Notes under the pieces: generated by a model
Databases searched by the model: none
What the model was told of the DNA's origin: nothing
Seen by the model: only the letters and a program-made list of their open reading frames with translations
Translations under genes and position numbers: made by a program
Virus record (IMG/VR): IMGVR_UViG_3300045988_131144
Coordinates: 14,352 to 78,351 of that record
DNA from: a virus
Direction: 5' to 3' (one strand)
Length of the DNA: 64,000 nucleotides
Shown here: in pieces, positions 3,068 through 64,000 of the stretch
How the letters are laid out: every line of letters begins with the position of its first letter
Position numbering within the stretch: the first letter of the stretch is position 1

Positions 3068-3198
3068 ACTCTGTTGCCAAAGTTCCCTTTCCGTCATACC
3101 ATACAAGAGAACATAGAAAATTTCAGGCAGAGTGCTCAAGATAGATATAGCGTGGGCGGCTCTGCCTGTTTTTGATTTGCAGGAGAGGAGGGCGCGCC

Positions 3199-38585: not shown

Positions 38586-38953
38586 TTAGATGCTCCCTCC
38601 TTGTTAACCAACCAGTCACAGCGCGTAACTATATACCAGCAAGAGCCGTAGTCCTCTATGCGATCGCCGGTTCGCGTAAGACCATTGTCGTGCGCGACAG
38701 CAAGTATCGCTTGAAGCAGCGCCGCTTTCCGGTCGAAGTAATCTTTTGCCGCTGTGGGTATATTCCACGTTGGCAGGAAAATCACATACGGGATATCGCT
38801 CCAAAACGAACTGAGATCATATTCGACATCTTTGATATCCGGCAATGCCATCAGCTCCGCATGAAGTTTTTCCATCTGCTCCCCTATGCCAAAGGCTTTC
38901 ATCGTCTTTATATCACGTTCACAGAATCCCACTGTTGTCAGCTCCTTCCTCAT
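38582..38953 (-). CDS. hypothetical protein
   Basis: 123-aa ORF. Confidence 0.5.
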   Translation of the reverse strand: MRKELTTVGFCERDIKTMKAFGIGEQMEKLHAELMALPDIKDVEYDLSSFWSDIPYVIFLPTWNIPTAAKDYFDRKAALLQAILAVAHDNGLTRTGDRIEDYGSCWYIVTRCDWLVNKEGASK

Positions 38954-40905
38954 GTCGCAGCGCTCAAAAGCGGCTGGGTCAGTTGCACGGCCTCAATAAT
39001 ATATTTCGACGGATTGACCATCACTTTTTCGTACTCCTCCGCGCCCTGAAACTCGTCTATGACGGTCTTTTCCTCAGCAGACATATCTGAATAGTGCTTG
39101 CGCCCGTAGCTCGGTGGGAGCCAACTGCGCTCTCTGGCGGCATAGATATTCAGGCGGTCGATAAGCGGCGCGGCCTCCGGCTTAAACTTGATGTGACATG
39201 TGCCCTTTTTATAGAACTTCGCCGTGAACCATGTGAGGTCAACGACCGTCTCGCCCGCCGCGATAGCGTGCTTTACCCACGCGGAAACATTGCGCTTCTC
39301 TGTAGTCTCGCCTCGGTCGAGGTAATTCAGCGCTCGTTCCAGGTCACTCAGTTCTCCATAGACCGTATACGCGTTCAATTCCCTCTCGTTTTTCCAGCCG
39401 CTGGAACTGCAAAATCCGTTTATTGGGAGGATGACTTTCGTGCCGACCTTGTGGGCTTTATTCGTCGCCCAGCCGTTATAGTAGTGAATATTCTTCTGGC
39501 ACTCCGGGAACCATGAATACTGCGCGGAGAATTTTTCAAAGAGAGCGTCTATACTCTCCTTCACACCATCCACGAGCTGCGCGTTGAGGTCATAGTAGAC
39601 CTGCTGGAGGTTAAAGAGGTTGAAATCATAGCCGCAGAGCTTATCGACCATTGCGGTGTAGTCCTTCTGCATCTTCGAGGTCATACGGGATGTAAACTCC
39701 GGCTTGTTGAGCAGACCGCGCCAGTACTTCATGCGCAGGGCTTTCATGTACCGCTCTATACCAGACGTGCCAACAGTCTGGAACTCACTGCCGTTTATGT
39801 TGATGGATATAAGCGGCTTTATGTAGCTTTTAGATGCGTCCAAGTCGTCCATCATATAGGGCATAAGTGCGTTGTATTCTTCTATGAGCTTCCTGCCAAG
39901 CTGCGCTTCAAAGTCAAAGGACTGTATCATCTGCTCCGCCCAAGAGCCGTACACCATGGCATCGGGTTCTGGCTCGTTATTGTGCAGCTCTTCGGCCTGC
40001 GCTTTTTTGAGGTTTTCAAAGATAGTTGAGGTCTTGCGCTGCGCGGGAATATTCACATAGATTATGGCTGCTTCAACATCGGTTCTGCGCTGCGCGTGCT
40101 TGAATGCGTCACGGACAAACTCTATCTTTGCGCCGCTCTCCGCGAGTTTCTGCTTGAGAACTTTGCGGCGGTTGGTATACGGATTCCTTATCGTCTCGGC
40201 GTTGAGCAGACATACAATTTGACCGCCGTCAGCCTGAATCTCCAACGCTTTCAAAAGATGCTCGTCACCGTTTGAAAATGGCGGGTTCATTATGATGAGG
40301 TCATAGTGCTTATGCGAATGGAAAGTAAGGAAGTCGTCGCTTATGACTCTGTAGTTCTTCCCGCGCAGCAGGGCGATGAGGTTAGCATCATGCTCTATCA
40401 TATCCACGGAGTCCATATCAAAATCGCTTCCGTATCGGCGGCTTTTGTTGGCAAACTTTATGTACAGCTCGGCAAGATCACCTTTTCCCGCTGACGGCTC
40501 CAAGACTGTACAGATTTCGTCGGGCTCCTTTATATTTCCGAACATCTTTCCAGCAAGCGCGCTGGGTGTGGGGAAAAATTCAGCGTTCGGATCGGCAAGG
40601 TACGAAACGATGTCTGTACCGGTTTCGGGGACTTCTTTATATTTCTCGGCAATTAACTGTTTTGCCTCAAAGAGAGTGTTCGCATTCCCACAATAGCCGC
40701 CATCCACCAGACTAACGCCGTAATATATACCGCGCCTGCCGTAGTTATCACGGTACTGGTTTATCTCTCCAACTTTCCCGCGGGTCGTGTAGACCGCCCA
40801 ATGCAGCCTTCCGTTCGGCCACATCTCGCAGAAGTCACGATCATAGCCGCGAAGCTGCAAGCGCTGTTCAAAGTAAAAATGCAATGTGCTGTAATACTTC
40901 TTCAT
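38950..40905 (-). CDS. N6-adenine DNA methyltransferase (gamma-class, NPPF) with large C-terminal domain
   Basis: Motif I VLEPSAGKGDLA and motif IV IIMNPPFS; ATG at 40905 behind AGGGAGGA; no adjacent restriction endonuclease recognised. Confidence 0.75.
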   Translation of the reverse strand: MKKYYSTLHFYFEQRLQLRGYDRDFCEMWPNGRLHWAVYTTRGKVGEINQYRDNYGRRGIYYGVSLVDGGYCGNANTLFEAKQLIAEKYKEVPETGTDIVSYLADPNAEFFPTPSALAGKMFGNIKEPDEICTVLEPSAGKGDLAELYIKFANKSRRYGSDFDMDSVDMIEHDANLIALLRGKNYRVISDDFLTFHSHKHYDLIIMNPPFSNGDEHLLKALEIQADGGQIVCLLNAETIRNPYTNRRKVLKQKLAESGAKIEFVRDAFKHAQRRTDVEAAIIYVNIPAQRKTSTIFENLKKAQAEELHNNEPEPDAMVYGSWAEQMIQSFDFEAQLGRKLIEEYNALMPYMMDDLDASKSYIKPLISININGSEFQTVGTSGIERYMKALRMKYWRGLLNKPEFTSRMTSKMQKDYTAMVDKLCGYDFNLFNLQQVYYDLNAQLVDGVKESIDALFEKFSAQYSWFPECQKNIHYYNGWATNKAHKVGTKVILPINGFCSSSGWKNERELNAYTVYGELSDLERALNYLDRGETTEKRNVSAWVKHAIAAGETVVDLTWFTAKFYKKGTCHIKFKPEAAPLIDRLNIYAARERSWLPPSYGRKHYSDMSAEEKTVIDEFQGAEEYEKVMVNPSKYIIEAVQLTQPLLSAAT

Positions 40906-40933
40906 GTGTTCCTCCCTGTTTCTGTGTGGTTCC

Positions 40934-41638
40934 CTATATGCTTTTTCCAAACATGGCCGCAATTTTCTTCCTGCCCTCGACCGTCACGAGCGTCTGTGCG
41001 CCTGTTTTCTCGCCATTAACGTATTCCTTGAGGGTGAAGTAGCCTTTATTGGTCTCGGCGTAGGGCCTGAGCTGCTGTTTCTTATCCCTGTAAAGATAGC
41101 CCGCGGCGATGAGGTTTCGTATCATTTCGCGCTCCCCGATGTGCAGTTCTTTGGCGGTCTCTCGGAATGAAAGATCGTTCCCTCGGTCTATGAGCGCGTT
41201 GAAGTAACTGACCTTCGGCGCGTCTCTGCGGCTGTTCGCCAGCAAGCCCCGGAAGAGCTGCTTTGTGGCTTCGTCAGCGCCCGGAATGTAGGTGTTGATG
41301 AAAAGCTCGTCGTTAGCCACGTAGCCGCCGGTGCGTCTTATAGTCGGAATGATTTCATCAGCAACAAGCGCCTGAAACTTCTCGGCGGTTTCGTTCTTTG
41401 CTTTCATCGCGAGGCGGTAGAAGATGTTTTCGGGGATGTAATCACCCGTGGTACACTTCTGTTCCACACCCAAATCTGACAGATACCCGCGAACGCGCGT
41501 CCAGTTGACGACTTCATTTCCGCTGTCGGCTTTCTTCACAAATCCCAGCCCGCGTGCAACCGCTTCGAGGTCGAGGTATGCCGTGCCGTCTTTTTCGTAG
41601 CAGCTAACGCCGCTGATGTTCATAATTTCGTTTGACAT
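40934..41638 (-). CDS. phage antirepressor (KilAC/ANT-type C-terminal domain)
   Basis: N-terminal ...LDLEAVARGLGF...; C-terminal SFRETAKELHIGEREMIRNLIAAGYLYRDKK... Confidence 0.65.
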   Translation of the reverse strand: MSNEIMNISGVSCYEKDGTAYLDLEAVARGLGFVKKADSGNEVVNWTRVRGYLSDLGVEQKCTTGDYIPENIFYRLAMKAKNETAEKFQALVADEIIPTIRRTGGYVANDELFINTYIPGADEATKQLFRGLLANSRRDAPKVSYFNALIDRGNDLSFRETAKELHIGEREMIRNLIAAGYLYRDKKQQLRPYAETNKGYFTLKEYVNGEKTGAQTLVTVEGRKKIAAMFGKSI

Positions 41639-41676: not shown

Positions 41677-41711
41677 GGTGTTGGGATGGTAGCACCCGTG
41701 TCAAGCGCAAA
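41677..41711 (-). promoter_or_regulatory. conserved element copy A (GCGCTTGACACGGGTGCTACCATCCCAACACC)
   Basis: 34/35 identical to 58846-58880 and related to 59040-59071; ends 38 nt upstream of the antirepressor ATG. Confidence 0.5.
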
Positions 41712-41796
41712 ATCGGTGTTTCTCTCGGTTTCGATGTCAAATACGCAGATTTTTGTATTGTATTCATAATGCTTTGCCAATCTACGCGGCAAATTT

Positions 41797-41960
41797 TGTG
41801 CAGTTCTCCCCACGTAGTCGGGTAATTCTCTGTGGCTCTCCTCGACCTTGTGGGGTGATTCTGTACAGATCCCCCGACGTAGTGACCTAATGTTGTACAG
41901 CCCTCCCGGAGGACGTTTTGGGAACGTAGTGACCTGTTTCTGTGCAGTTCCCCTAACAAG
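41797..41960. repeat. iteron-like composite direct repeats
   Basis: Plus-strand TGTRCAG at 41797, 41862, 41894, 41941; ACGTAGTGACCT at 41877 and 41924, with partial ACGTAGTCG at 41812. Confidence 0.55.
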
Positions 41961-42105: not shown

Positions 42106-42528
42106 TTACATCTCCTTTATCAGTTTTATAAAGCCCTGCTGCTTGAGGTTCTTGAGCCAAATGTGTAGGAACTCGTCAAGGCTCACGCGCAGACGCTGAG
42201 AGTACATCATCTGGCCGTTAACTTCCTTGTAAACTTCGTCGTAGCTCCCGGTATAGTCATTGCGGAAAAGAACGGGTTCAATAGTCTGTTCGGTCTCATC
42301 GACCGCAAACTCGATCTCAGGATCAGCCATAAGATCGCCGTTCTGCTCGGAGTAATGCGCGATGTAGTACACGGGGCGACCTTTATAGTCCGAGAAGTAG
42401 AGGAACTCGGCGGCAAGGCGCGTGTACGGTTCATTCTCCACACTGATATGAAAGTCGTGTCGAGAAAGCGCCTCCAAGATGGGGCGCAAGTCCTGATAGT
42501 TCTGCTTTGCGTGTTTCAGTTCGGTCAT
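42106..42528 (-). CDS. hypothetical protein (resembles the DUF6908-type family of Firmicutes mobile elements)
   Basis: ATG at 42528 behind GGGAGGA; ...QNGDLMADPEIEF... motif recalled from that family. Confidence 0.45.
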   Translation of the reverse strand: MTELKHAKQNYQDLRPILEALSRHDFHISVENEPYTRLAAEFLYFSDYKGRPVYYIAHYSEQNGDLMADPEIEFAVDETEQTIEPVLFRNDYTGSYDEVYKEVNGQMMYSQRLRVSLDEFLHIWLKNLKQQGFIKLIKEM

Positions 42529-42552
42529 GTTCGTAAATCCTCCCAAGTATTT

Positions 42553-42680
42553 TGCGGGCGCGTGTTCACACAAACCCCCGCAGTTTTTCTATTGGCCGTG
42601 TTCAGGGGCGCGGAAACTTCCCAGTAAAATCCCGCGGGCGTGTTCAGCACCCCCAAGACTTCCGCGCGCCCTGTTCACAT
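42553..42680. repeat. four spaced (G/C)TGTTCA repeats in a GC-rich non-coding gap
   Basis: GTGTTCA at 42562, 42598, 42640 and CTGTTCA at 42671, with CGCGG/CCGCG stems around them. Confidence 0.45.
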
Positions 42681-42948
42681 TTCGGGACGCGGTCGCTCGC
42701 CTCTGCCCCGTTCGGTGATCCTGCCGGACACGTCCGGCGGCGGGTGCAATCTGTTTTCTTCGGGGAGGTGCACCAGCTCCCCACGGCCTTACATCAGCAC
42801 CCCGGCAGGCTGACCGCCGTTTATAGCGATGGGCGCGCGTCCTCGTATCTCTCGCCGGGTTTAATCCTGTTTTCTTGCCCATGAGCGCCCGCCATATAGG
42901 CGGCTGGACTTGCACCAGCGGCGGCGGATGCCGTCGGCCTTGCGGGCT

Positions 42949-43830
42949 TCACGCGGCGATTATGGCCGCGCGTATTTGCTCGATGATCTCATATATTTTA
43001 GTACTGCCGGTGCCGCTGTTGCGCTTGTAATAGCGCACAGAGTACCGCGGCGCACCCTCGATAATGGTAATGCTGCATTGTGCAAAGCTATTGAGGATCC
43101 AGCCGCGAGTGCGCAAGGGAATTTTCACGCCGTGCGCGTCGGCTATCTCTACCAATAAAGCGCCGTCTTTTATCAAACCGCCGCGGGTAAAAATCTCCTC
43201 GGCCTTCTTTATCTCTTGCCGGTGCTGCTCTTCCTGCTCTGCTCTTTCCTTTGCTTCCTGCTCTTCACGTTCACGGCGGGCGGCTTCTTCTCTCGCTTCT
43301 CCATCGGCGCGCAGTTTTGCGGACAGCTCCGCGCACTTGCCAAGCTCCCCGAGTACAGCCGCGCCGACGAAGTCGGCGAACGTGCCGCCGTTGTCGCGGG
43401 CGTCGGTGTAATTACGAACGCGAACGCGCAGACGATCCCGGATATAATCCGCTTGCCGTGCAGGGTCTGAGCCGTACCGAAGTATTACGGGTTCTTCCTG
43501 CGCTCGCAGCGCGTCCGTGTTTTCGGTTCTCCGCCAAACTCGCGCCCGTTCCTCCTGCGTGCCGTATAGTTCCACGCAAGCCGGGAAAAAGCCCAGAACA
43601 TCGGTAAATTTATAATCTGTCATCCGCAGCGGCACTAAATAGTTGTTGATCTCGACATAAAGAAAATACCTGTCGCGCTCATTGGCGGGGTATTGGTTTT
43701 TCTCTGTACATGTCCAAAGCTTGTACGACTCCGCGCCGTTGCTGACCTCGCGCACAAAATCCGCGCGGCAGTTTTTGCCCTCGCGGTTATACATGCCGTT
43801 AATAAAAAGGGGCTTTTTTAATGTGCTCAT
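42949..43830 (-). CDS. hypothetical protein with central Glu/Arg-rich coiled coil
   Basis: 293-aa ORF. Confidence 0.5.
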   Translation of the reverse strand: MSTLKKPLFINGMYNREGKNCRADFVREVSNGAESYKLWTCTEKNQYPANERDRYFLYVEINNYLVPLRMTDYKFTDVLGFFPACVELYGTQEERARVWRRTENTDALRAQEEPVILRYGSDPARQADYIRDRLRVRVRNYTDARDNGGTFADFVGAAVLGELGKCAELSAKLRADGEAREEAARREREEQEAKERAEQEEQHRQEIKKAEEIFTRGGLIKDGALLVEIADAHGVKIPLRTRGWILNSFAQCSITIIEGAPRYSVRYYKRNSGTGSTKIYEIIEQIRAAIIAA

Positions 43831-44453: not shown

Positions 44454-44496
44454 GTTCTGACCTCCTGCGCCCGTCTGGGCTTGTCTGACTGTATGT

Positions 44497-44525
44497 ATTA
44501 TACAGTACGGTTAACAGTATTGCAA
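44497..44525 (-). promoter_or_regulatory. promoter TTGCAA-N17-TATAAT with embedded GTTAAC operator half-site
   Basis: Minus strand reads TTGCAA TACTGTTAACCGTACTG TATAAT. Confidence 0.6.
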
Positions 44526-44574
44526 TATGTTATCTTGCACAAGGTTAACCGTACTTTTTTGTGCGAATTGTATA

Positions 44575-44603
44575 TTGTTAACCGTGCGCACATTGGTTAT
44601 AAT
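44575..44603 (+). promoter_or_regulatory. promoter TTGTTA-N17-TATAAT overlapping a GTTAACCG site
   Basis: TTGTTA ACCGTGCGCACATTGGT TATAAT, 20 nt upstream of the TTG start at 44624. Confidence 0.55.
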
Positions 44604-45090: not shown

Positions 45091-45136
45091 ATGCTTTGTA
45101 CGGTTTACCGTGCTTATTTTTGTGCATTATTGCGGC

Positions 45137-45165
45137 TTGCAACACTGTTAACCGTACTGTATAAT
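45137..45165 (+). promoter_or_regulatory. promoter TTGCAA-N17-TATAAT, inverted copy of 44497-44525
   Basis: TTGCAA CACTGTTAACCGTACTG TATAAT. Confidence 0.6.
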
Positions 45166-45218
45166 AACACCCGTAAACAAGAATATCTGACAGATCAGAT
45201 ATTAACGGAGGTAAAAAA

Positions 45219-45377: not shown

Positions 45378-46379
45378 ATGAAATATTTCGCACAGTGCAA
45401 AAACCTTGAGGAGCTCAAGAAGGAATTTAGACGGATGGCCATGCTTCACCACCCCGACCGCGGCGGCGACGTCGAGACCATGAAAGAGATCAATAACGAG
45501 TATGACATGATGTTTCCCGTGCTCAAGGCCAAGACAGCCGCGCAGAGCACCGAAACCGCCCAGAGCACCCGCAGCGAGTTTTACACCGCGAACGGCTGGA
45601 AGGGCGAACGGTACGAAGCCGGGCGCAGCCTCAAGGAGATAGCGCAGCTTGTACGCGCCTACATCAAGGAATTTTTCCCGGACTACCGTTTCAGCGTCCG
45701 CACGGCCTACGCTTCCATGTGCCAGGAACTTCACGTTGACATGAAAGAAGCTCCCGCGGAGATCTTCAAGACCTACGAGGAAATGACAGACGATGATATT
45801 TCCGAGTGTTGGCGGAAGGCCACCCGCAACAGTGTATGGACCCTCAACAGCTGGAACAAGGCCGAGGAGAAAGCCGAATTTGAAAGAATTTGGAGCAAGT
45901 ACGGCGCATTTTATAGATGCCTGACCGACAAGACCCGCGCGACGGTGAAGGCCGTTGACGAGTATGTGAACAGCTTCAATTATGACGATTGTGATAGCAT
46001 GATAGATTATTTCGACGTCAACTTTTATTACTTCGGATGCCTGCAGAGCCCCGGCGCCGTGAAAGTCGTCCCCCGCGCTCCAAGAGCCGAGAAGCGCCCC
46101 GCCAAGGCCGAGAGCGAAGCCCCGGCACCGGCACCGGCAGACAAGGCCGAGAAGCCCGAACAGATAGCCCCGGCGAAGCTCGCAGCGCTCCGCGTTGAGT
46201 TTAATACAGAGCATGACGGGATCGAGGTTTATTTTACTTCTAAGCCCTCTCAGGAAACGCGCGACGCGCTCAAGGCCGCGGGGTATCGTTGGCATAGCGT
46301 TAAAAAATGCTGGTTCGCCAAACGCACCGAGGCGCATTTACAGGCACTCAAAAGGATTGAGGACGAAGCCGCAGCGTAA
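45378..46379 (+). CDS. J-domain (DnaJ-like) protein
   Basis: N-terminal LKKEFRRMAMLHHPDRGGD with the HPD tripeptide; C-terminal GIEVYFTSKPSQETRDALKAAGYRWHSVKKCWFA motif. Confidence 0.75.
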   Translation: MKYFAQCKNLEELKKEFRRMAMLHHPDRGGDVETMKEINNEYDMMFPVLKAKTAAQSTETAQSTRSEFYTANGWKGERYEAGRSLKEIAQLVRAYIKEFFPDYRFSVRTAYASMCQELHVDMKEAPAEIFKTYEEMTDDDISECWRKATRNSVWTLNSWNKAEEKAEFERIWSKYGAFYRCLTDKTRATVKAVDEYVNSFNYDDCDSMIDYFDVNFYYFGCLQSPGAVKVVPRAPRAEKRPAKAESEAPAPAPADKAEKPEQIAPAKLAALRVEFNTEHDGIEVYFTSKPSQETRDALKAAGYRWHSVKKCWFAKRTEAHLQALKRIEDEAAA

Positions 46380-46417
46380 ACCCCGCCCCATACATCACAA
46401 TGCAATATAAAGCCCCT

Positions 46418-46447
46418 GAGACGGTCAGAAATGGCCGTCTTTTTTAT
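46418..46447 (+). terminator. rho-independent terminator
   Basis: AGACGG tcagaaatgg CCGTCT followed by TTTTTTATT. Confidence 0.6.
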
Positions 46448-46495
46448 TGCCTTTATGCAGATGTCGACCGGGGACACGATCCGCGCCCATGCCCT

Positions 46496-47045
46496 TTAAT
46501 ATATATTATTTATATTATATATATTATATCCAAGATGTAATATATACTGTGTGTATAGGTATATATTAATAACCTATGTAATATTGGAATATACAGCCGT
46601 TCCCGCCCAGAACGCCGAGCACCAGGAGCGCCCCCGCACAAGCTCACCAAATCCCGAACCAGACGCGAGGAACGCACCCAGAAGCCCACACAAGCGCCAT
46701 ATATCGCCCCCCCTATTCTTATAGACCATACCCCGCCCCAGCCGAGCACACGACGCACGACGGAGCTTTACACAGTCGTACAGCTCCCCACACCCTTTTA
46801 TATATAAATATCTAAGATATATATTATATATACTTGAGATTTATAATATATGTGTGTATATAATGTGTATATATATCTCTATAGGTATATATAAAATAAG
46901 CGCTGCCAAGAAGAGAGCGAACCGCACACAGAAAGAATATACACACACAGCCAAAGCAAGGAGCAGAGCAATACCACAAAGAAGAGAGAGAGCACCGCCA
47001 AGAGAAGCAAGGACACAGCAACACCCAACACAACATGTTGCTGAC
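46496..47045. repeat. two tandem modules, each a TA-repeat block followed by a T-poor CA/GA-rich block
   Basis: TA blocks at 46496-46595 and 46796-46898 share ...GATNTAATATATNNTGTGTGTATA...TAGGTATATAT...; T-poor blocks at 46596-46795 and 46899-47030. Confidence 0.55.
46834..46864 (+). promoter_or_regulatory. candidate promoter TTGAGA-N17/19-TATA(T/A)(A/T) in TA block 2
   Basis: TTGAGA at 46834; TATATA at 46857 or TATAAT at 46859. Confidence 0.3.
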
Positions 47046-47265
47046 TGTCGAACCATTTTAATACAGTTCTTCAGACGGGGGAGAGTCACCAACTCGCGCT
47101 TGTTCACGATTTCGGGAACATTTGCGAGATTTTGCGAGTTTTCAAAAGCTCCGCGAAAACCGACGTCAGCCCCGCCGAAGTCGTCCAGCTCTGGTCATTT
47201 GTGTAATAATGACCAGAGATAGCTCCCCGCCCCCACTTGCAAAACCGCACGGGGGCTTGATTTTT
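46870..47265 (+). ncRNA. candidate non-coding transcript of about 400 nt (hypothetical)
   Basis: Bounded by the candidate promoter and the terminator-like hairpin at 47229-47265. Contains a T-poor tract, CAACATGTTG palindrome, TTTGCGAG x2 and an 11-bp perfect hairpin at 47189-47218. Confidence 0.2.
47229..47265 (+). terminator. terminator-like hairpin
   Basis: GCCCCC (16-nt loop) GGGGGC followed by TTGATTTTT. Confidence 0.4.
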
Positions 47266-53299: not shown

Positions 53300-53707
53300 T
53301 CATCCATAAAGCCCAAGACTCACAAACAGTCTCTTGGCTTCCTCGTCATACGCCTTATAATCCGGGTACTTATCCAGAATGTCAGCGTATTTGCACCGCT
53401 TCTGTCCGCCGCATGCCTTGCGGTCTTTGCAATATACGCATCCGTATTTCTTCTGCGAGTCCGGATTAACACCTACATATCCTTCCGAGCCGCCCAAGCC
53501 CTCGCGCGAGCCTTTTCGCACCTTGGTACAGCCGCAGTTTCTGACTCGTCCTGTGCGGATATCATAGCCACGGCGGACAAAGGTTTTCCCGCATATCCGG
53601 CAGCGGCAATTGAAATACGCCCCCAGAGTTCCGCCAGAGCGCTTTTCGTTGTAACTCAGGACTTCTACGTCGTGGAATGTTTGCCCTGATATGTCGATGA
53701 TTTTCAT
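53300..53707 (-). CDS. Cys-rich hypothetical protein
   Basis: 135-aa ORF. Confidence 0.5.
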   Translation of the reverse strand: MKIIDISGQTFHDVEVLSYNEKRSGGTLGAYFNCRCRICGKTFVRRGYDIRTGRVRNCGCTKVRKGSREGLGGSEGYVGVNPDSQKKYGCVYCKDRKACGGQKRCKYADILDKYPDYKAYDEEAKRLFVSLGLYG

Positions 53708-53922
53708 GTTGTCTCCTCTATTGTCTCAAGCAAAGCAATCAGCCCAAAGAACGACCGCGGGTTTATCCCGGTCTTTTCCTTTGCCGCTGTCAAATGAAAT
53801 TCCACTGTGGAGTTGTTCATGTTCAGCGCTCTGGCCGTAGCTGTGGCGTTCATATTGTTTTCGGCATAAGTGCAAATTACGCGCTTGCACTTCTCGGTTA
53901 ATGGCCGTTGGCTTTTGTCCAT
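53704..53922 (-). CDS. LuxR/GerE-type HTH small regulator
   Basis: LTEKCKRVICTYAENNMNATATARALNMNNSTVEFHLTAAKEKTG. Confidence 0.5.
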   Translation of the reverse strand: MDKSQRPLTEKCKRVICTYAENNMNATATARALNMNNSTVEFHLTAAKEKTGINPRSFFGLIALLETIEETT

Positions 53923-56544: not shown

Positions 56545-57059
56545 TCTGCATCCTCCACGTAACACCAGCTTTGCGGGGCACGCGTCAAATAGCGCTCCTT
56601 ATTGACATACCACGTATACGGCTGAACTTTTTCAAGGACAAGCGGCTTGACAAATGAGGTCAGTTCTCGCGGTGAATCATAAATTTTTAGATTGGAAATG
56701 CGCCAGCCGTACATCGGTGACTGCACTGCATACGCCGCCGCATCACACGCGCTCAAGCAAGCCGCTTTGTAAAACTTTTCATCGTGGCCGAACGTGTGAT
56801 CTTCAATAATCTGATTGCAAAGAAATTCCCCTATGACTTTGCCGCTCCCACATTTATCAAACGCGTTATGGCTGTGATCGTCCACATAAGAATATCTCGG
56901 CCCTGTCCAAAACTGCTTTTTTGCGTCTCTCGTGCAGTAGATGTATACCTTGAATGGCGTTTCCAGCTTTGGGCGCGATTTCCGCACCTCGATTGACTTA
57001 TCTCTGCTCGCGATCTTCACGCACCAGTCTGGGCGTATGCTGATTAAAACTGCTTTCAT
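56541..57059 (-). CDS. ASCH-domain protein
   Basis: MKAVLISIRPDWCVKIASRDKSIEVRKSRP... fits the ASCH N-terminal pattern. Confidence 0.55.
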   Translation of the reverse strand: MKAVLISIRPDWCVKIASRDKSIEVRKSRPKLETPFKVYIYCTRDAKKQFWTGPRYSYVDDHSHNAFDKCGSGKVIGEFLCNQIIEDHTFGHDEKFYKAACLSACDAAAYAVQSPMYGWRISNLKIYDSPRELTSFVKPLVLEKVQPYTWYVNKERYLTRAPQSWCYVEDAE

Positions 57060-57071
57060 CAGTTCACCTCC

Positions 57072-58796
57072 TTACACTGCTACGGCAGACGCCAACTCGG
57101 TCATCGTCGTAAGCGCCTTGCGGTTCCACTCCGGCAGATTCGCCATCACAACGGCTGTTGCCATCGGCGGACACACGGCGTTGCCGCAGCGCGCGACCTG
57201 TTGTGATTTTGGATAGTCGTTTCCTTTATAGTCCTTGTCGATTATGTAGTCCGGAGGGAAACCCATTGCGGCGTACAACTCACGCGGGGTCAGCATACGA
57301 AGCCCAATGTCGGAAATGAAGTACCATGTGTCTCGGATATTAAGCAAAAGGACTTCATCTTCGGAAAGACTGTACCCACAATGTTTATTGAGAAGCACGC
57401 GAATTTCCGGCCAGTATTTCAGATCCGCATCGGGTGTATATTGCACTACCCTTGTCTGCACTTCCGCAAATTCTCCGATAGAAGCTGTAATAGTGCGGAG
57501 AGGTCGGTCTACACTTTGGCCTTTATCTTGCCCCTTAAACTCTGCGATGTGTACCGCTGTGAGAGCTTCGCGGTCCCGTGACGTCACCGTGTGCATCGGG
57601 ATTCTTACATCAAGAGGACGACCAGTGCTGAAATACTCGACAAGGTGCGCTGTTGTAAGACCGTATCTGTTGGATGCGTCGACTGTTGGAAGCGGAGTCT
57701 CTACGCCGTTCGCGCGCACATTTTCGCTTTGTTCGGTGTGATATTGGATAAGAGACGGGGAAACAAGCATCTGATTCTCTGCGGTTGTTACTGTATGTAC
57801 TGGCTCCGCGGCAGAGCCGCCAACGCTGTTTGTTGTATTGGATACTGTTATGGGTGTCAGTAACGGCCTACACAGGTTTTCTTTCCCCGTTCCTACCACA
57901 GTCGGAACCGGAGCCTCAATGTCATGTACCCTGGGTGCCTGCCCTTTGCGCTCACCATAGCCTGTTGGCACAATAAATGGCTTACCGCTTTTGATCGTGA
58001 ACTTATCAACTCCACGTATCACTCTGCGCATGGTGTTATCCGCCAAAGGCCTGACAGCTTTTACACCATATTGTTCTTGTATCTCTGTCTTGGTCGCGAA
58101 TACAGACGGGCAAGGAAGCGACCAGTCTATGATTTCCGCCGCCGATCTCCACGGTTTGTACTTGCCGCTCTTCACTTCTGCATTGTCCGCGGGTGCATGT
58201 GTGCGTTCAGGCCACACAATAGGCCGTCCATCGCATCGGGCTATCAACACGAACCTTTTTCTACTCGTAGGCGCGCCATAGTCCGCGGCAATCAAAACCC
58301 GAAACTCAACAGTATATCCAAGGTCTTTCAGCTGGCCGAGCCACTTCTGAAAAGTGCAGCCTGCTTTTTTCTTCACCGGCTTGCCTTTCCTTACCGGTCC
58401 CCATGTTTGAAACTCTTCAACGTTTTCGAGTATGATAACGCGCGGCTTAACGGTTCCAGCCCAGCGGAGAACTATCCACGCAAGTCCGCGGATATTGCGG
58501 TCAACGAGCGCCGCGCCCTTCGCCTTGCTAAAGTGCTTGCAATCAGGCGAAAACCACGCCAGCCCAACAGGACGCCCCGCGCATACCTTTTCTGGGTCTA
58601 CGTCCCAAATGGAAGCTTGGAGATGTTCGGTATATGGATGATTGGTCTTGTGCATCAGGATTGCGGCAGGATCATGGTTAATGGCTATTGTAACCGGACG
58701 GCCTGTTGCGAGTTCTATTCCAGTGGAAGCACCACCTCCCCCGGCAAAGTTGTCCACTATAATCTCATCAAGCATGGACACTTGTGCTCTATTCAT
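57072..58796 (-). CDS. dcm: DNA (cytosine-5) methyltransferase
   Basis: Motif I DNFAGGGGAS, motif IV FSPDCKHFS, motif VI ENVEEF, motif X CGNAVCPPM. ATG at 58796 (alternative 58775); the ORF-track N-terminal extension is rejected. Confidence 0.8.
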   Translation of the reverse strand: MNRAQVSMLDEIIVDNFAGGGGASTGIELATGRPVTIAINHDPAAILMHKTNHPYTEHLQASIWDVDPEKVCAGRPVGLAWFSPDCKHFSKAKGAALVDRNIRGLAWIVLRWAGTVKPRVIILENVEEFQTWGPVRKGKPVKKKAGCTFQKWLGQLKDLGYTVEFRVLIAADYGAPTSRKRFVLIARCDGRPIVWPERTHAPADNAEVKSGKYKPWRSAAEIIDWSLPCPSVFATKTEIQEQYGVKAVRPLADNTMRRVIRGVDKFTIKSGKPFIVPTGYGERKGQAPRVHDIEAPVPTVVGTGKENLCRPLLTPITVSNTTNSVGGSAAEPVHTVTTAENQMLVSPSLIQYHTEQSENVRANGVETPLPTVDASNRYGLTTAHLVEYFSTGRPLDVRIPMHTVTSRDREALTAVHIAEFKGQDKGQSVDRPLRTITASIGEFAEVQTRVVQYTPDADLKYWPEIRVLLNKHCGYSLSEDEVLLLNIRDTWYFISDIGLRMLTPRELYAAMGFPPDYIIDKDYKGNDYPKSQQVARCGNAVCPPMATAVVMANLPEWNRKALTTMTELASAVAV

Positions 58797-58845
58797 TCCG
58801 ATATTGATTCCTCCTTCATACCAGCGCAAGTGCGTCTGGCTCTTT

Positions 58846-58880
58846 GGTGCTGGGATGGTAGCACCCGTGTCAAGCGCAAA
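58846..58880 (-). promoter_or_regulatory. conserved element copy B
   Basis: Minus strand reads TTTGCGCTTGACACGGGTGCTACCATCCCAGCACC; ends 49 nt upstream of the dcm ATG. Confidence 0.5.
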
Positions 58881-58952
58881 CGAACCAGATGGCGCAGAAC
58901 TGCGACGTTGTTTTGTGCAAGTATCACAAAATTTCAAGCTTAATGAACGTAG

Positions 58953-58989
58953 AAAAGCAGCCATTTCAATTTGAAAAGGCTGCTTTTTT
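58953..58989. terminator. bidirectional terminator-like hairpin between divergent elements B and C
   Basis: AAAAGCAGCC (15-nt loop) GGCTGCTTTT followed by TT. Confidence 0.5.
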
Positions 58990-59039
58990 CGTATACCTAT
59001 ACAAATTTTGATGTTTTGGCGATTCCCAAGCACAAAAAC

Positions 59040-59071
59040 GCGCTTGACACGCCGTGTATCATCCTTGCACC
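59040..59071 (+). promoter_or_regulatory. conserved element copy C
   Basis: GCGCTTGACACGCCGTGTATCATCCTTGCACC; ends 16 nt upstream of the ATG at 59088. Confidence 0.5.
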
Positions 59072-59087
59072 GAAAAAGAAAGGGGCG

Positions 59088-59300
59088 ATGCCTATGCAGG
59101 GAGCCGAGCTTAAAGCCGCGGCAGTCGGCATACTCACATATCTGGCGATAACGAACGAGGAGACCACTCGGCACAGCGGAGAGGACGGTGAAATCATGGA
59201 GTTTGACGCGACATATGATCCAGCCACGTTCAAACTGGCGATGCGGTATCTCGCGCGGATGGACATGGAAGAAACGGAGGTGAGGCTCAGTGGACATTGA
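59088..59300 (+). CDS. hypothetical protein (70 aa)
   Basis: MPMQGAELKAAAVGILTYL...; first ORF after element C. Confidence 0.4.
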   Translation: MPMQGAELKAAAVGILTYLAITNEETTRHSGEDGEIMEFDATYDPATFKLAMRYLARMDMEETEVRLSGH

Positions 59301-59856
59301 CAGTATTGTTGCGATTATGAAAGGAATCGGAATCATGATATTAGCGATTGCGTGCTGCGTGCAGGCAATACGCTTTCTTTTCAAAATATGTGACTGGATC
59401 GATTATGTGGAGAAAAAGGCAAATCACAAGTACATTCAGTGTTCCCCGAAAATACTTGAGATAATGTTGACCACTCTTCAATACAAAATTTATCCAATAA
59501 CTACAACGTCCATAGACTGGTCTGGCTTAGAGAAAAAGGAATGTTACGGTATAGAATGGATTCGGCAAGACTCCTATGGTAGGGAAAGCTCCATTCTCAT
59601 ATATGGCCGAACTCGGCGAGAACAAGAGGAGATGAACTCCATCGTTATAAAAGCCTTACAGAAGAAGCGAACCGCGGATGTGAACAAGAAAGTTCTCGCC
59701 AACGACGCAACTATTGAAGCGGCAAATCGAATGAAAGACGACATCCAACGTATCATCAGCGAAAATCTCCGCGCCGCGCAGGAAGCCGCGCGGAAAAATC
59801 AAGAGATTATAGACCGCCTATCGGGAACAAACTCTTCCCGTGGAGGCTCACCATGA
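59290..59856 (+). CDS. membrane-anchored hypothetical protein
   Basis: GTG start behind GGAGGTGAGG; TM GIGIMILAIACCVQAIRFLF. Confidence 0.5.
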   Translation: MDIDSIVAIMKGIGIMILAIACCVQAIRFLFKICDWIDYVEKKANHKYIQCSPKILEIMLTTLQYKIYPITTTSIDWSGLEKKECYGIEWIRQDSYGRESSILIYGRTRREQEEMNSIVIKALQKKRTADVNKKVLANDATIEAANRMKDDIQRIISENLRAAQEAARKNQEIIDRLSGTNSSRGGSP

Positions 59857-60371
59857 ACAGCCGGGACGATGCCGAGCGGCGTTACCTTGAGAATGAAAAA
59901 CTCATTTATGGCGCTTTGCATAAATATTTCCCGGCGCTCGCGTCTGATGAGGACATTCAGCAGATCGCGGGGATCGGTCTCTGGAAAGCCTGTTTGAACT
60001 ACGATGCGGATAAGTCGTGCTTCTCAACTGCCGCGTATAAATTCATCAAGACCGAAGTGCTGCAGGAACTACGAAAAAGGCGACGCCGAGGCAAAATCAC
60101 AACAATACCTTTCGCTGCATTGGTGTGCGATTTGACCGCTGAGGGTAAAGAAGAGCTGGATATCCTTGCCATTAGTCCGAGTCTTGATGACATCGACTGG
60201 TGCGACGCAGAAACGTTTTGGGCATCATTGACCGAACGCCAGCAGTTCATCGTCAAGGCGCGTATATCTGGGCTGATTGATGAGGAAATCGCCGCCGCAC
60301 TGGGTTTGTCTCGCACATTGATTATCCATGAAAAGAAAAACATTCGGCGAATAGCCGAGGAAACATTATGA
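59853..60371 (+). CDS. sigma-70-family (ECF-sized) RNA polymerase sigma factor
   Basis: Region 2-like IAGIGLWKACLNYD...FSTAAYKFIKTEV; region 4 HTH LTERQQFIVKARISGLIDEEIAAALGLSRTLIIHEKKNIRRI. Confidence 0.7.
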   Translation: MNSRDDAERRYLENEKLIYGALHKYFPALASDEDIQQIAGIGLWKACLNYDADKSCFSTAAYKFIKTEVLQELRKRRRRGKITTIPFAALVCDLTAEGKEELDILAISPSLDDIDWCDAETFWASLTERQQFIVKARISGLIDEEIAAALGLSRTLIIHEKKNIRRIAEETL

Positions 60372-60387
60372 ATGGAGGTAGCTAAAG

Positions 60388-60813
60388 ATGCCACTACTTA
60401 ACTATACCACGAAAGTGGATGTCTATACCACGATAGGTGCTATACAGGGGCAGCTTGTAAAGCACGGAGCAAAGAAGATCATGCAGGAATATGACGATGC
60501 CGGTCGCATAACGGCTCTATCTTTCCAGATAGACACGCCCAACGGGATGCGGGGCATAAAGCTTCCGTCTAATGCAGAGGCTGTTAGGCGTGTACTCGCG
60601 AAGCAGAAAGTCAAATGTGATGTTGAGCAGTCTGAACGAGTTGCGTGGCGCATTATCAAAGACTGGGTAGAAGCTCAAATGGCCATCCTCGAAAGCGAAA
60701 TGGTGCAGATGGATGAAATCTTTTTACCGTATATGCTCAACAGTAAAGGTCAGACAGTTTTTGAGGCATATCAGAGCCAGCAACTATGGCTCGGAGAGGG
60801 AGGAGAAAAATGA
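60388..60813 (+). CDS. hypothetical protein
   Basis: 141-aa ORF. Confidence 0.5.
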   Translation: MPLLNYTTKVDVYTTIGAIQGQLVKHGAKKIMQEYDDAGRITALSFQIDTPNGMRGIKLPSNAEAVRRVLAKQKVKCDVEQSERVAWRIIKDWVEAQMAILESEMVQMDEIFLPYMLNSKGQTVFEAYQSQQLWLGEGGEK

Positions 60814-61520
60814 GTAAACCAATTTATGTTCCAAAAGGAAAAGCCAAAGAATACGGCGACTATGCGATCAATATTTACACAGGATGCCCACATCGTTGCT
60901 TTTACTGCTTTGCCCCGAATGTGCTCCGCCGCGACAGAGAGACTTTTCACACAAATGTCAAGCCGCGAGAGAACATAGTCGAGGAAGTCCGAAAGCAGGT
61001 TGAACGTGAGCACATTACCGGACAACTCATTCATCTATGCTTCACCTGTGACCCATATCCCACGGGCTACGATTCGACACCGACACGTGAGGTTATCAAG
61101 ATTCTGAAAGAAAGCGGTAATCACGTACAGATACTCACTAAGGGTGACGGCTCAAGGGACTTCGACCTGCTTGATGAAGGAGATTGGTACGGCATTACTT
61201 ACGATGGCGCACCGCACGGCTTCTATACCCTTTCAGACATGATAGCAGACCTTGCCTCCGCAAGAATAGCGACCGGCTGCAATACGTGGGTATCGTGTGA
61301 ACCGGTCTTGGATGCCGATGCCGTCTTGAAGTTCATTGAAGAGTACCACACCATAATCGATAAAGTTAAAATAGGGAAACTCAATTATTTCCCGTCCAAT
61401 ATAGACTGGGCAGTTTTCGGCAGAGATGCTGAAGCCTTGTGCAAGAGCCTCGGCATTGACTACTACATAAAAGAGAGCCTACGCGCAGAAATGGAGGAAA
61501 AAAGTAATGATGTTAATTGA
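60810..61520 (+). CDS. radical SAM enzyme (CxxxCxxC; resembles the SPL / DNA-photolyase-like COG1533 type)
   Basis: INIYTGCPHRCFYCFAP near the N-terminus; ATG at 60810 behind GGGAGGAG. Confidence 0.6.
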   Translation: MSKPIYVPKGKAKEYGDYAINIYTGCPHRCFYCFAPNVLRRDRETFHTNVKPRENIVEEVRKQVEREHITGQLIHLCFTCDPYPTGYDSTPTREVIKILKESGNHVQILTKGDGSRDFDLLDEGDWYGITYDGAPHGFYTLSDMIADLASARIATGCNTWVSCEPVLDADAVLKFIEEYHTIIDKVKIGKLNYFPSNIDWAVFGRDAEALCKSLGIDYYIKESLRAEMEEKSNDVN

Positions 61521-61953
61521 CTACAGTCCCGAGAGAGATGGTGCTCCTCCCTACTCTTGGCTGAAACCATCAATCTTTAAGGACATTCTTTTCAAAAAGT
61601 ATATACGTCCTCAAGAACAGGAACGGCAACTCTCGTACCACGACTGGGTAAATTATAGCACGGAAAGGTGGGCTCTGCTTAACTCCAGAATAAATAACTC
61701 TGAGAATCAGGCAGATCAGTGTATATGGGTGCTTTCTCACATTAACTCCTTTAGTGCCGCCGACAGGGACATTATTGTGCGTTGCTTGGATTCTTTTGCC
61801 CATGACAATCTGAGTTTTTATTGTGATGTGGATCCCACGCTCCACCTGCGTCTTTTGTGTAGTGCTGACGAAATTCGGAACCTCCCTGCCAATGTGCAAT
61901 CTATCCATCTCGATGCAAGCTCAATGTGCTTTGCCGCCGCTTTGTTTGATTAA
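61507..61953 (+). CDS. hypothetical protein, paralog 1 of a tandem pair
   Basis: Shares SWL-P-I..D.L..KYI and ERWALLN-RINN-ENQ-D with the next ORF. Confidence 0.5.
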   Translation: MMLIDYSPERDGAPPYSWLKPSIFKDILFKKYIRPQEQERQLSYHDWVNYSTERWALLNSRINNSENQADQCIWVLSHINSFSAADRDIIVRCLDSFAHDNLSFYCDVDPTLHLRLLCSADEIRNLPANVQSIHLDASSMCFAAALFD

Positions 61954-61964
61954 GGAGTGAAGAA

Positions 61965-62561
61965 ATGAGTTATACAAGTCTTTGGATAATAGATAAGAAT
62001 TGGAGCGGCACAGAGCACCGCAAATATCCCAACTCATGGCTGATGCCTCCCATTGTTTGGGATGTTCTCATGCAGAAATATATTGGCACCAACGAACGCA
62101 ACGGGGTTGATTCCTATCTTGTATGGGTATGCGCCTGTTCCGACAAAGTACGCAACGAGCGCTGGGCGCTTCTCAACGGCAGGATTAACAACACTGAGAA
62201 TCAGACCGACAGAATAATGTGGGAGCTTGCGGGTCTCAGCGTTTTCAGCTCCAAGGATAAAGAGTTTGTGGCAAGCTGTATAGATGATTTTGTGAGAGAG
62301 AATCAAATCATCAATATTCAACTGCAAACACCGCCGGTCATCCAGCGTTTTTTTGCCATTGCTAACGATATTCGTAGCCTCCCTCGGAACGTCAAATACT
62401 TCGTTATCCACCCCAACAGCGTTGATGATTCCGTCGAGTGGTGGTTTCACCATAAACGCCTGTCCTCATGGGACAAGTTTGTTTGCGAGTTCACTCTGAT
62501 AGAGGGCAATAAGGTCGTCGGCTTTTCGACAAACCTTGAGATGTGCAAAGGAGACAACTGA
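61965..62561 (+). CDS. hypothetical protein, paralog 2 of a tandem pair
   Basis: ERWALLNGRINNTENQTDRIMWEL...; about 50 extra C-terminal residues. Confidence 0.5.
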   Translation: MSYTSLWIIDKNWSGTEHRKYPNSWLMPPIVWDVLMQKYIGTNERNGVDSYLVWVCACSDKVRNERWALLNGRINNTENQTDRIMWELAGLSVFSSKDKEFVASCIDDFVRENQIINIQLQTPPVIQRFFAIANDIRSLPRNVKYFVIHPNSVDDSVEWWFHHKRLSSWDKFVCEFTLIEGNKVVGFSTNLEMCKGDN

Positions 62562-62818
62562 TGGAACGATTAACTTTTGAAGGCAATTTCTGCGATATCG
62601 CACAGTGTCGAGCGATGCCGTGCCCCTATAACAATTCCTGCACCCAAAAACAGGTGTGGGAGCGCCTTAAAATGTATGAGGATATCGGCCTTCCGCCTGA
62701 CATAATCAAAGAATATAAAAAGTTTGAAGATGAACTCGTTTCCGACGGCTTGTCGTATGCAAAGTTTCTCAAAATGCTTAAAGAGCGTGAAAACAGCGGA
62801 AAGGACGAATGTAAATGA
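62561..62818 (+). CDS. hypothetical protein
   Basis: ATG at 62561 behind AAGGAG, overlaps the upstream TGA. Confidence 0.45.
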   Translation: MERLTFEGNFCDIAQCRAMPCPYNNSCTQKQVWERLKMYEDIGLPPDIIKEYKKFEDELVSDGLSYAKFLKMLKERENSGKDECK

Positions 62819-63192
62819 TTAACAGACTGCTTGACAAATTTATTAATAACGAAATGGAACGACACGGATTCGTTCTGACCGATGAGAACGGGTATGGCGC
62901 ATATTACGAGCGTCGGGACAAGCGCGGGTTTGACCATGTAATCTGCGTATTGCATAAAGCAAAGGGTAAGCCAATCGTGCAGAGTTATGACAAGAAAACA
63001 CATATCACCAAGGACAATTACTTCATTAACAGTGTATGCGGCTTTGAAGTTTCTCTTCTTCCCCTGCTATGGCTTAAAGCCAAAGTACTCGCTCACAAGT
63101 ATGGGTGGGAGAACTGGAATTGGGTAGGCCCTTCGGACAAAACAAAAAAAGAATTAAAGCGAATAAGGAGAGAAAGGAAGCACAACAGATGA
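62815..63192 (+). CDS. hypothetical protein
   Basis: 125-aa ORF. Confidence 0.5.
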   Translation: MINRLLDKFINNEMERHGFVLTDENGYGAYYERRDKRGFDHVICVLHKAKGKPIVQSYDKKTHITKDNYFINSVCGFEVSLLPLLWLKAKVLAHKYGWENWNWVGPSDKTKKELKRIRRERKHNR

Positions 63193-63401
63193 CTAAATCA
63201 AATCGCGCCGCACTTATATGCGGCTTGGCAGAAAGTCTGAAAGAGAGCGTTTCAGATTACGAGGATGCAGAAACGAGGGCTAATTGGAAACCCGTGGGCG
63301 GACAAGCCGTGACATTAGAGAACTCCTGCACTTCTATCGTCCGCAAGTGCAGGACGCTACGTGCTGAATTGAATGTGCTCATTCACGAGATGAAAGGCTG
63401 A
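63189..63401 (+). CDS. hypothetical protein
   Basis: ATGA coupling; MTKSNRAALICGLAESL... Confidence 0.4.
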   Translation: MTKSNRAALICGLAESLKESVSDYEDAETRANWKPVGGQAVTLENSCTSIVRKCRTLRAELNVLIHEMKG

Positions 63402-63406
63402 AAAAG

Positions 63407-63601
63407 ATGAAGCACGGAATTGGGAACGTAGTGAGGGTTAACGACTTGATGTACAAAGGGTGTGAGCCTCATTGGAAATGCGTAAAATGCGGGGACTGTG
63501 CACCATTCCACTGTTTTTCAAAGAAAGAGTTCGCCGAGCTCAAGTGCAAGCATAGCGTAAGCCATTCATTCAATCGACAGGAGGATAACCATTATGGCTG
63601 A
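63407..63601 (+). CDS. Cys-rich small protein
   Basis: 64-aa ORF. Confidence 0.4.
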   Translation: MKHGIGNVVRVNDLMYKGCEPHWKCVKCGDCAPFHCFSKKEFAELKCKHSVSHSFNRQEDNHYG

Positions 63602-63830
63602 ATTAAAACCGTGCCCGTTCTGCGGCGGTAAACTGAACTTTTACCGAGAGAACTATGTGAATCGTTTCGGAAAGCGCGTCATTGAGCAATACTGGATGCA
63701 CGATGATACAGATTGTGTCCTTAACGACATAAATCAACCTTTTGTTTTAGGGGCTGGAGATGCAAACCCGGAAACGGGTTATCCAGGAGAGTATGCTGAA
63801 AAATGGAACAGGAGGGCTGACAATGGCTGA
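63594..63830 (+). CDS. Lar-family-like zinc-ribbon protein
   Basis: MAELKPCPFCGG...AEKWNRRA. Confidence 0.65.
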   Translation: MAELKPCPFCGGKLNFYRENYVNRFGKRVIEQYWMHDDTDCVLNDINQPFVLGAGDANPETGYPGEYAEKWNRRADNG

Positions 63831-64000
63831 ATACAAAATCTGCTTTAGCGTGGCTGGGGCGTTCGGCGCTCAAATCAGCTTTGAGGCAAAACCCGGCGTA
63901 TCCTATGAGGACGCTGCGGCATCTATTGACAAGGAAAAGCTGGTCCGGTTGATGTGCCTCGACACCTTGGGCTACTCCGCAAAGGACATTGAGGTTATCA
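63823..64000 (+). CDS. hypothetical protein (3'-truncated by window end)
   Basis: MAEYKICFSVAGAFGAQISFEAK...; overlaps the upstream stop. Confidence 0.35.
   Translation, partial: MAEYKICFSVAGAFGAQISFEAKPGVSYEDAAASIDKEKLVRLMCLDTLGYSAKDIEVI

Follow-up and report, generated by a model that had tools for sequence, protein, structure and literature searches.

A 32-base element that recurs three times in the stretch of phage DNA analysed here (64,000 nucleotides, hereafter the window) stands at the head of three operons and is very probably the promoter of each; by chance no copy would be expected. The reading we favour, to which we attach a probability of about 0.45, is that the primary sigma factor of the host, sigma-A, would initiate from a partly extended -10 inside the element, with a class-specific box taking the place of the -35 hexamer. 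The three copies, here called A, B and C, appear to be paralogous copies of one cassette that is peculiar to a group of uncultured phages of human-gut Firmicutes, temperate and siphovirus-like. The copies themselves, their conservation, their placement relative to terminator and ORFs and the pattern of their variation are shown directly; which hexamer acts as the -10, where transcription starts and that a factor binds the conserved box are, throughout, what we infer from the sequence.

Three copies and the genes behind them

The copies lie as follows.

41677-41708, minus strand: copy A, pattern match with 0 mismatches
58846-58877, minus strand: copy B, pattern match with 0 mismatches
59040-59071, plus strand: copy C, pattern match with 2 mismatches

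The same pattern gave no match in any of 100 dinucleotide-preserving shuffles, and the window holds no fourth copy with six or fewer mismatches over the specified positions. Pattern scan and shuffles thus bear out the three occurrences reported in a preliminary description of this DNA, and its geometry, too, was confirmed on the sequence: A ends 38 nt before the ATG at 41638, B 49 nt before that at 58796 and C 16 nt before that at 59088 (downstream of C, a second ATG, at 59094, is better spaced), A and B agree at 34 of 35 positions if three upstream T's are counted, and B and C are inverted, that is divergent, about 160 nt apart. Domain and profile matches agree equally with the genes it had assigned to the three operons.

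40934-41638, minus strand: antirepressor (KilAC/Bro-N), downstream of copy A, by domain matches
38950-40962, minus strand: DUF4942/Dam-like methyltransferase, after the antirepressor, by domain matches
57072-58796, minus strand: C-5 cytosine DNA methyltransferase, first gene of the B operon (PF00145, 2.6e-27)
59088-59856, plus strand: two small ORFs, of 70 and 188 amino acids, between copy C and the sigma gene
59853-60371, plus strand: sigma-70-family factor of 172 amino acids with no regions other than 2 and 4, part of the C operon

The last of these had been named as a sigma factor, and matches Pfam Sigma70_r2 (3.5e-8), TIGR02937 (7e-12) and phrog_351 (1.7e-15). The 188-residue ORF ahead of it reads as having a hydrophobic N-terminal stretch and gave no anti-sigma match in domain and profile searches; in several relatives the two small ORFs are uncalled, or a single tiny ORF stands in their place. 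Every relative has C ahead of the sigma operon, and in some of them it directly adjoins the sigma gene itself. The close relatives examined likewise have copy A at this place upstream of the antirepressor gene; there it reads GCTA at positions 11-14 and keeps TG and TACCAT. The gene that follows B differs among relatives, with the B element and its 5' leader retained, which would be the behaviour of a portable promoter cassette.

The phage itself is temperate and siphovirus-like, and the window covers about 64 kb of it, with some 14 kb of the genome lying beyond. A packaging and structural block occupies the plus strand (terminase 4200-6005, portal 6273-8054, and a putative tape-measure ORF of 1549 amino acids at 20003-24652), a long minus-strand block of DNA-modification and accessory genes extends left from B, and a plus-strand accessory operon extends right from C. 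Dozens of related contigs of about 75-85 kb were recovered from IMG/VR and metagenome assemblies, one of them labelled human gut, and the group seems to be common in human-gut metagenomes; none of the contigs had a DNA-level match among GenBank phages. The terminase is SPbeta YonF-like, with its best match in a human faecal phage. Among GenBank phages, neither a DNA match to the region 57000-64000 nor a match to the sigma factor was found, and in representative bacterial genomes the sole match to the sigma factor, at 29%, lies in an uncultured Clostridia MAG. We place the host as a Firmicutes-type bacterium of the human gut, and no more finely. Textbook TTGACA-17-TATAAT promoters are also present in the phage, so that the host primary sigma should be of the usual Firmicutes kind.

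In the relatives examined, an integrase and a CI/Cro-type switch follow the sigma operon. The window encodes a tyrosine recombinase (31093-32049) and a small transcriptional-repressor-family protein (32042-32236, phrog_876) on the minus strand, behind a perfect TTGACA-17-TATAAT promoter (32294-32266) and directly after putative lysis genes; the integrase of the relatives is thus at a different place from this recombinase.

Within the collections scanned, the element is restricted to contigs of this sigma-encoding phage group, and 185,579 representative bacterial genomes contain no match to it. Single matches to a shorter version of the pattern, in nine unrelated viral contigs, were judged to be chance, for which a rough estimate of the expectation is about 20.

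Anatomy and promoter-like features of the element

The anatomy of the element was drawn from 28 distinct haplotypes, 15 of A or B type and 13 of C type, which are related by descent. Three blocks emerge, placed as follows in the window.

Copy C, plus strand: GCGCTTGACA (block 1) 59040-59049; TATCATCC 59057-59064; CACC 59068-59071; predicted start A 59069
Copy B, minus strand: block 1 58877-58868; TG 58863-58862; TACCATCC 58860-58853; predicted start A 58848
Copy A, minus strand: block 1 41708-41699; TG 41694-41693; TACCATCC 41691-41684; predicted start A 41679

Block 1, at positions 1-10, is near-invariant, with three single variants (C2T, G3A and A10G), and the TTGACA that it contains is kept in 27 of the 28 haplotypes, the sole loss being to TTGACG. 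Positions 11-14 and 17 are free; the CG after TTGACA, which the preliminary description had counted as part of the element, is not conserved in relatives. The A/B haplotypes read CGGGTGC, TGGGTGT, CGGGTGT, GCTATGC or GCCATGC across positions 11-17, with T15 and G16 kept in all 15. In block 2, TAYCATCC (18-25), T18, A19, C21, A22 and T23 never vary, either C or T stands at position 20, and positions 24 and 25 show one C-to-T change each. Positions 26-28 are variable, and block 3, CACC (29-32), is the loosest, with C or T at 29, A or G at 30 and C, A or T at 32. Here positions 29 and 30 are pyrimidine and purine in every haplotype, two substitutions preserving the pattern. The three copies cease to resemble one another after position 32, or +3 if the start is at position 30. 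Upstream of block 1, A and B have a T-tract, and most C copies have an A-tract.

The middle block had been overlooked. Its TAYCAT is a -10-like hexamer 7 bp past TTGACA, a gap exactly 10 bp, or one helical turn, below 17, and it matches TATAAT at four or five of six positions, including the critical A2 and T6. Its one variable base, position 20, is the third of the hexamer and falls among the less conserved positions of a sigma-70-type -10. All 15 A/B haplotypes carry TACCAT or TATCAT with TG one base upstream, and the A-type GCTATGC-TACCAT is a perfect Gram-positive TRTGn motif. C haplotypes have the better hexamer, TATCAT, in 12 of 13 cases; TG stands at -15/-14 in none of the 13 and at -14/-13 in 12, and one haplotype has TACCAT without a canonical TG.

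Several other interpretations of the element were set aside. An RNA hairpin (GGTGC/GCACC) would be out of register in C and is broken in relatives, with compensatory changes absent; a hairpin in the 5' leader of B (CCAGACGC...GCGCTGG) likewise shows uncompensated changes in relatives, and no match to Rfam reached threshold for the element as a structured RNA leader or known RNA family. Sigma-54 promoters have GG at -24 and GC at -12, 10 bp apart (TGGCAC-N5-TTGC). Read as TGACACG-N4, the element has GA in place of GG and lacks GC at -12, and its positions 11-12 vary.

That the element is a promoter is made very probable by its conservation and by its surroundings. The preliminary description had proposed searching related phages for the motif, and such a search finds it at the same three operon heads: every full-length related contig that could be counted has three copies, in the same three places. 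Across 35 distinct haplotypes of the B-C region, mean pairwise identity is 0.95 for the B element and 0.93 for the C element, as against 0.71-0.91 for the remaining intergenic DNA and 0.60-0.73 for adjacent coding DNA, so that the two elements are the most conserved segments of their region. Between them lies one further feature.

58953-58989, both strands: bidirectional intrinsic terminator between B and C, hairpin then T6

The terminator hairpin has a fold energy of -23.9 kcal/mol (z-score -7.2), and in relatives its stem is rewritten in compensatory fashion, from GCAGCC/GGCTGC to TCCGCC/GGCGGA or ACCGCC/GGCGGT, which argues that the terminator is real. If so, each promoter is confined to its own side: that of the sigma operon to the 98 nt from 58990 to the ATG at 59088, and that of the leftward operon to the DNA between 58952 and 58797. 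By sequence reading and scan the element is the sole promoter-like sequence in 58990-59087 and in 58952-58797, and by eye TATCAT is the sole good -10-like hexamer in the former. Read in this way, copy C must hold the promoter of the sigma operon. The terminator is placed where neither a B nor a C transcript would meet it, and could act on antisense read-through or on a short unannotated transcript.

Scans found no canonical sigma-70-type promoter near A, B or C. The hexamers 17 bp past TTGACA are ACACCT, GCACCA and GCACCG, the RCACCN of the preliminary description, and by eye no hexamer with A2 and T6 lies 15-19 bp past TTGACA at any of the three copies. The contrast drawn there with five other promoters having perfect TATAAT boxes needs a change of number: a scan for perfect TATAAT with at least four of six matches in the -35 hexamer gives nine sites, of which four are upstream of a same-strand gene on the ORF map.

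32294-32266, minus strand: perfect-TATAAT site upstream of a same-strand gene
44525-44497, minus strand: perfect-TATAAT site upstream of a same-strand gene
44575-44603, plus strand: perfect-TATAAT site upstream of a same-strand gene
45137-45165, plus strand: perfect-TATAAT site upstream of a same-strand gene

The sequence comparison supports the view that A, B and C form a promoter class apart from these canonical TTGACA-17-TATAAT promoters of the phage. This half of the earlier proposal stands; its other half, reading by the phage sigma, fares less well, the recognition helices of that sigma varying while the element is constant.

Candidate architectures and readers

A -35 and a -10 only 7 bp apart are unusable by one holoenzyme, and one of the two boxes must therefore have another reader or another role. 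In the architecture that we favour, TAYCAT of block 2 (18-23) would be the -10 hexamer, read by the host primary sigma, and in A and B the weaker TACCAT would be backed by the TG at -15/-14, as in the Gram-positive TRTGn -16 region. Transcription would start at the purine of position 30, the A of the conserved CA, 7 nt past the hexamer. At the normal distance upstream there would be no -35 hexamer; GCGCTTGACA would stand there instead, at about -29 to -20. This box would define the class and is most likely bound by a conserved trans-acting factor, a prediction under which the factor, host-encoded or a conserved phage protein, replaces the -35 contact or gates the promoter. Alternatively, RNA polymerase itself may read block 1.

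A comparison promoter before the packaging genes bears on the choice of hexamer.

3074-3102, plus strand: promoter before the packaging genes, TTGCCA (3074-3079)-17-TACCAT (3097-3102)

In relatives the hexamer of this promoter is TACCAT or TATCAT, matching the C/T polymorphism of the element, and its normal spacing argues that the phage group does use TAYCAT as a -10. About 20 nt beyond this promoter, putatively a late one, lies a long hairpin (stems 3124-3132 and 3160-3168) with a T5 run, directly before a terS-like gene at 3172, a layout like that of a promoter-terminator pair needing antitermination.

With TAYCAT as the -10, the leaders of the three operons are of ordinary length. With TTGACA as a -35, on the other hand, ACACCT, GCACCA and GCACCG would have to serve as the -10, hexamers unusable by any primary sigma; the -10 would fall in the least constrained block, and transcription of C would begin near 59079-59081, on or within the ribosome-binding site (59078-59085). 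Our preference for TAYCAT is nonetheless only moderate. It is unlikely that TTGACA in all three copies is unrelated to sigma region 4, which counts against the TAYCAT architecture, and the CC at positions 24-25, kept in 27 of the 28 haplotypes, is not explained by a plain sigma-A -10. The TG of the C type is one base too close for an extended -10, and the A-tract before most C copies fits an UP element if TTGACA is the -35. Nor is the TG of A and B decisive: since the haplotypes are related by descent, its invariance rests on few events, some 4-7 substitutions, for which the probability by chance is roughly 0.1-0.25.

The preliminary description had offered two interpretations, of which one was that the phage sigma reads the element and autoregulates its own operon in the manner of ECF sigmas. 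As phage-sigma promoters under positive autoregulation, the three copies would have GCGCTTGACA as an extended -35 and RCAC of block 3 as a short -10, with a start about 7 nt past position 33 and block 2 as a spacer element or operator. We consider this unlikely. C does lie directly before the sigma's own operon in every relative, where an autoregulated sigma promoter should be; the element occurs only on contigs of the sigma-encoding group and in none of the representative genomes; the distance between the centres of blocks 1 and 3 fits normal -35/-10 geometry; and SigN of the B. subtilis plasmid pBS32, which counts in favour of such a model, is said to drive its own gene. However, regions 2.4 and 4.2 of the sigma vary among relatives, with no matching variation in blocks 1-3. 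In relatives whose sigma identity ranges from 52 to 99%, two forms of region 2.4 occur (IKTEVLQELR and IANEV(L/R)MELR) and three of the recognition helix of region 4.2 (LSRTLIIHEKKNIRR, VSHATVIREKNIIRR and VCPSVVIREKQKIRQ), the latter differing, in a manual alignment, where E. coli sigma-70 and sigma-E contact bases. The forms of the two regions assort independently among otherwise similar phages (relatives P0001-P0038), and blocks 1 and 2 are essentially identical in phages carrying each helix type; by analogy with those two sigmas, the phage sigma is probably not the reader of block 1. Its use would also leave the invariance of block 2 without explanation, make the least constrained block the -10, put the start of C in the ribosome-binding site and raise a bootstrapping problem at first expression. 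The ECF comparison in particular is not borne out, the AAC (-35)/CGT (-10) motif, spaced about 16-17 bp, being absent in register from all 28 haplotypes, and the sigma being nearest to SigF, SigH and SigK, not to ECF sigmas, in profile searches and structural-database matches. A different use of the two boxes would let sigma read both, but not at once: region 4 on TTGACA would put region 2 over RCACC, unable to open DNA, and this jammed register would compete with productive binding via TGnTAYCAT, until a phage factor removed or remodelled region 4 or the phage sigma used blocks 1 and 3. Such an interleaved, dual-register promoter would give all three blocks a role and would suit a -35-like box exactly one helical turn closer (7 vs 17), and the neatness of a perfect TTGACA at that distance is too great to dismiss. 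AsiA of T4 and gp39 of the Thermus phage P23-45 are known examples of phage proteins by which region 4 is displaced and promoters independent of a -35 are favoured. The argument is nevertheless purely inferential, and if the phage sigma is the second reader it meets the same covariation problem; we regard as quite improbable both the dual register and the new promoter logic that it would imply, in which host RNA polymerase stays non-productive as long as no phage function has taken sigma region 4 away or put something else in its place. Were it true, one switch would serve three accessory operons, those of DNA modification, the antirepressor and the sigma factor.

The other earlier interpretation, a shared operator of a master regulator, would make the element a site for the immunity repressor or another such protein, with the real promoters elsewhere. 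Three copies at operon heads would suit an operator, as would extra TTGAC boxes, some 36 nt before A and others, in some relatives, close upstream of B (GCGCTTGACCgatttGCGCTTGACA), which hint at a DNA-binding protein. Yet the DNA before C has no space for another promoter, the element has no dyad symmetry, and it is identical in heteroimmune relatives, whose repressor genes and CI/Cro switch sequences differ, so that on the sequences compared the immunity repressor is probably not the reader of block 1. Nor is the small PucR/GerE-type HTH protein of the B operon (53704-53922) a good candidate for that role, or a help to the operator reading, having no detectable homologue in the loci of six relatives. 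An operator and nothing more thus seems to us very improbable. The inverted arrangement of B and C raises one further thought, that they are recombination sites of an invertible switch flanking 160 bp with the terminator; this we find scarcely credible. The inverted 35-nt arms are 74% complementary, and a tyrosine recombinase is encoded at 31093-32049, but a single orientation is found in 35 of 35 distinct haplotypes, the arms differ in their centres, and copy A lies 17 kb off in direct orientation, yet deletion has left no trace.

Two smaller observations concern the sigma gene and its kin. The mosaic of recognition helices suggests recombination, or diversifying selection on promoter specificity. 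Six distant homologues of the sigma (28-41% identity) have no similar element nearby; they sit inside co-directional operons or in unrelated contexts and give no comparative leverage.

Relation to known systems and neighbouring features

If the favoured architecture is right, the nearest likeness is to extended -10 promoters of sigma-A. The sequence of A and B is (T/G/C)(A/G)TG-n-TACCAT, neither A-11 nor T-7 varies, a pyrimidine-purine step lies at the normal start distance, and no -35 is present at 16-18 bp. Unlike that class, the C copies have no TG at -15/-14, and the element adds an invariant 10-bp box (-29 to -20) and CC at -6/-5. Promoters in which an activator box replaces the -35 near a -10 include the middle promoters of T4, with the MotA box at about -30, and the pho-box promoters of PhoB. 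These share with the element a sigma-70-type -10, a conserved asymmetric box in the place of the -35, and several copies per genome that define a temporal or regulatory class. The box of the element, however, is 7 bp from the -10 as opposed to about 10-13 bp, and it contains a perfect TTGACA; among the phage genes in the window, no protein of the MotA, AsiA or PhoB type was recognised.

A contact by RNA polymerase itself also has a precedent. With the RNA polymerase of Thermus aquaticus, a spacer Z-element at -22 to -18, which the beta' zipper contacts, is reported to substitute for the -35; the enzymes of E. coli and B. subtilis also gain promoter activity from it, and the described forms are AACCT, AACAT and AATGT (PMC3173786). 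With TAYCAT as the -10, the element would have an invariant ACA at -22 to -20, overlapping the place of the Z-element in -10/Z promoters. A short and loosely defined Z-element, on the other hand, leaves the invariant GCGCTT at -29 to -24 without explanation.

Self-activating sigma operons are known for ECF sigmas and for SigN of pBS32. As in these, a sigma gene on a mobile element has here a class-specific promoter directly upstream, and the same motif precedes other operons of that element. In contrast to ECF operons, the AAC/CGT motif is absent, and the domain and profile searches brought up no recognisable anti-sigma; unlike self-activating operons in general, the recognition helices vary and the motif is constant. 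Sporulation-like sigmas are known from Firmicutes phages, and some act on host genes (PMC9429907). The sigma of the C operon resembles them in being a small phage sigma with best matches to SigF, SigH and SigK, encoded in an accessory operon of a temperate Firmicutes phage, and differs in that its 172 residues lack region 3.

A class of three copies that heads a DNA-methylase block, an antirepressor and a sigma operon offers a handle on gene regulation in this phage group. Should both sigma-A-like boxes prove functional at 7 bp, the promoter design would be unusual; if not, the element would add to the promoter classes specific to phages in which an activator-type box replaces the -35.

The DNA around the copies has features of its own. 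Some relatives, namely L032 (9705-9735, minus strand), L155, L171 and L174, have a partial duplication of block 1 close upstream of B (gaTTTGACGGCGCTTGACCgatttGCGCTTGACA), giving three TTGAC boxes in about 30 bp. Also upstream of B, at 58911-58931, lies a partial palindrome, TTTTGTG-N7-CACAAAA, a candidate site for a separate regulator; its right half, TCACAAA(A/G)TTT, is conserved and its left half varies, and it is near-perfect over 19 bp in L032 and L155. Related boxes (GCACAAAATTT, and three repeats of CTGYACARAA...AGGTCACTACGT) occur upstream of A in the minus-strand reading of 41790-41950, within a 240-nt non-coding stretch, and the boxes upstream of A and B may together represent the site of a second shared regulator.

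Further into the accessory block, a self-cleaving ribozyme of the twister-sister family is predicted at 42872-42950 on the minus strand (Rfam RF02681; score 76.5 bits, gathering threshold 34). It shares 2 nt with the 3' end of the ORF 42949-43830 and lies upstream of a DUF6908 gene (42106-42573). Two inverted 47-nt copies of a canonical promoter with TTGCAA-17-TATAAT (44496-44542, minus strand; 45120-45166, plus strand) are 83% complementary; both have a TTGTGCA box upstream and a conserved spacer that is nearly palindromic (ACTGTTAACCGTACTG). The 577 bp between the two copies contain small ORFs, and the gene for a J-domain/LPD29 protein lies at 45378-46379. Beyond it, in the middle of the accessory block, the apparently non-coding, AT-rich stretch 46400-47100 contains tandem repeats of ATATATATT (3.4 copies) and a TA-rich run at 46799-46893.
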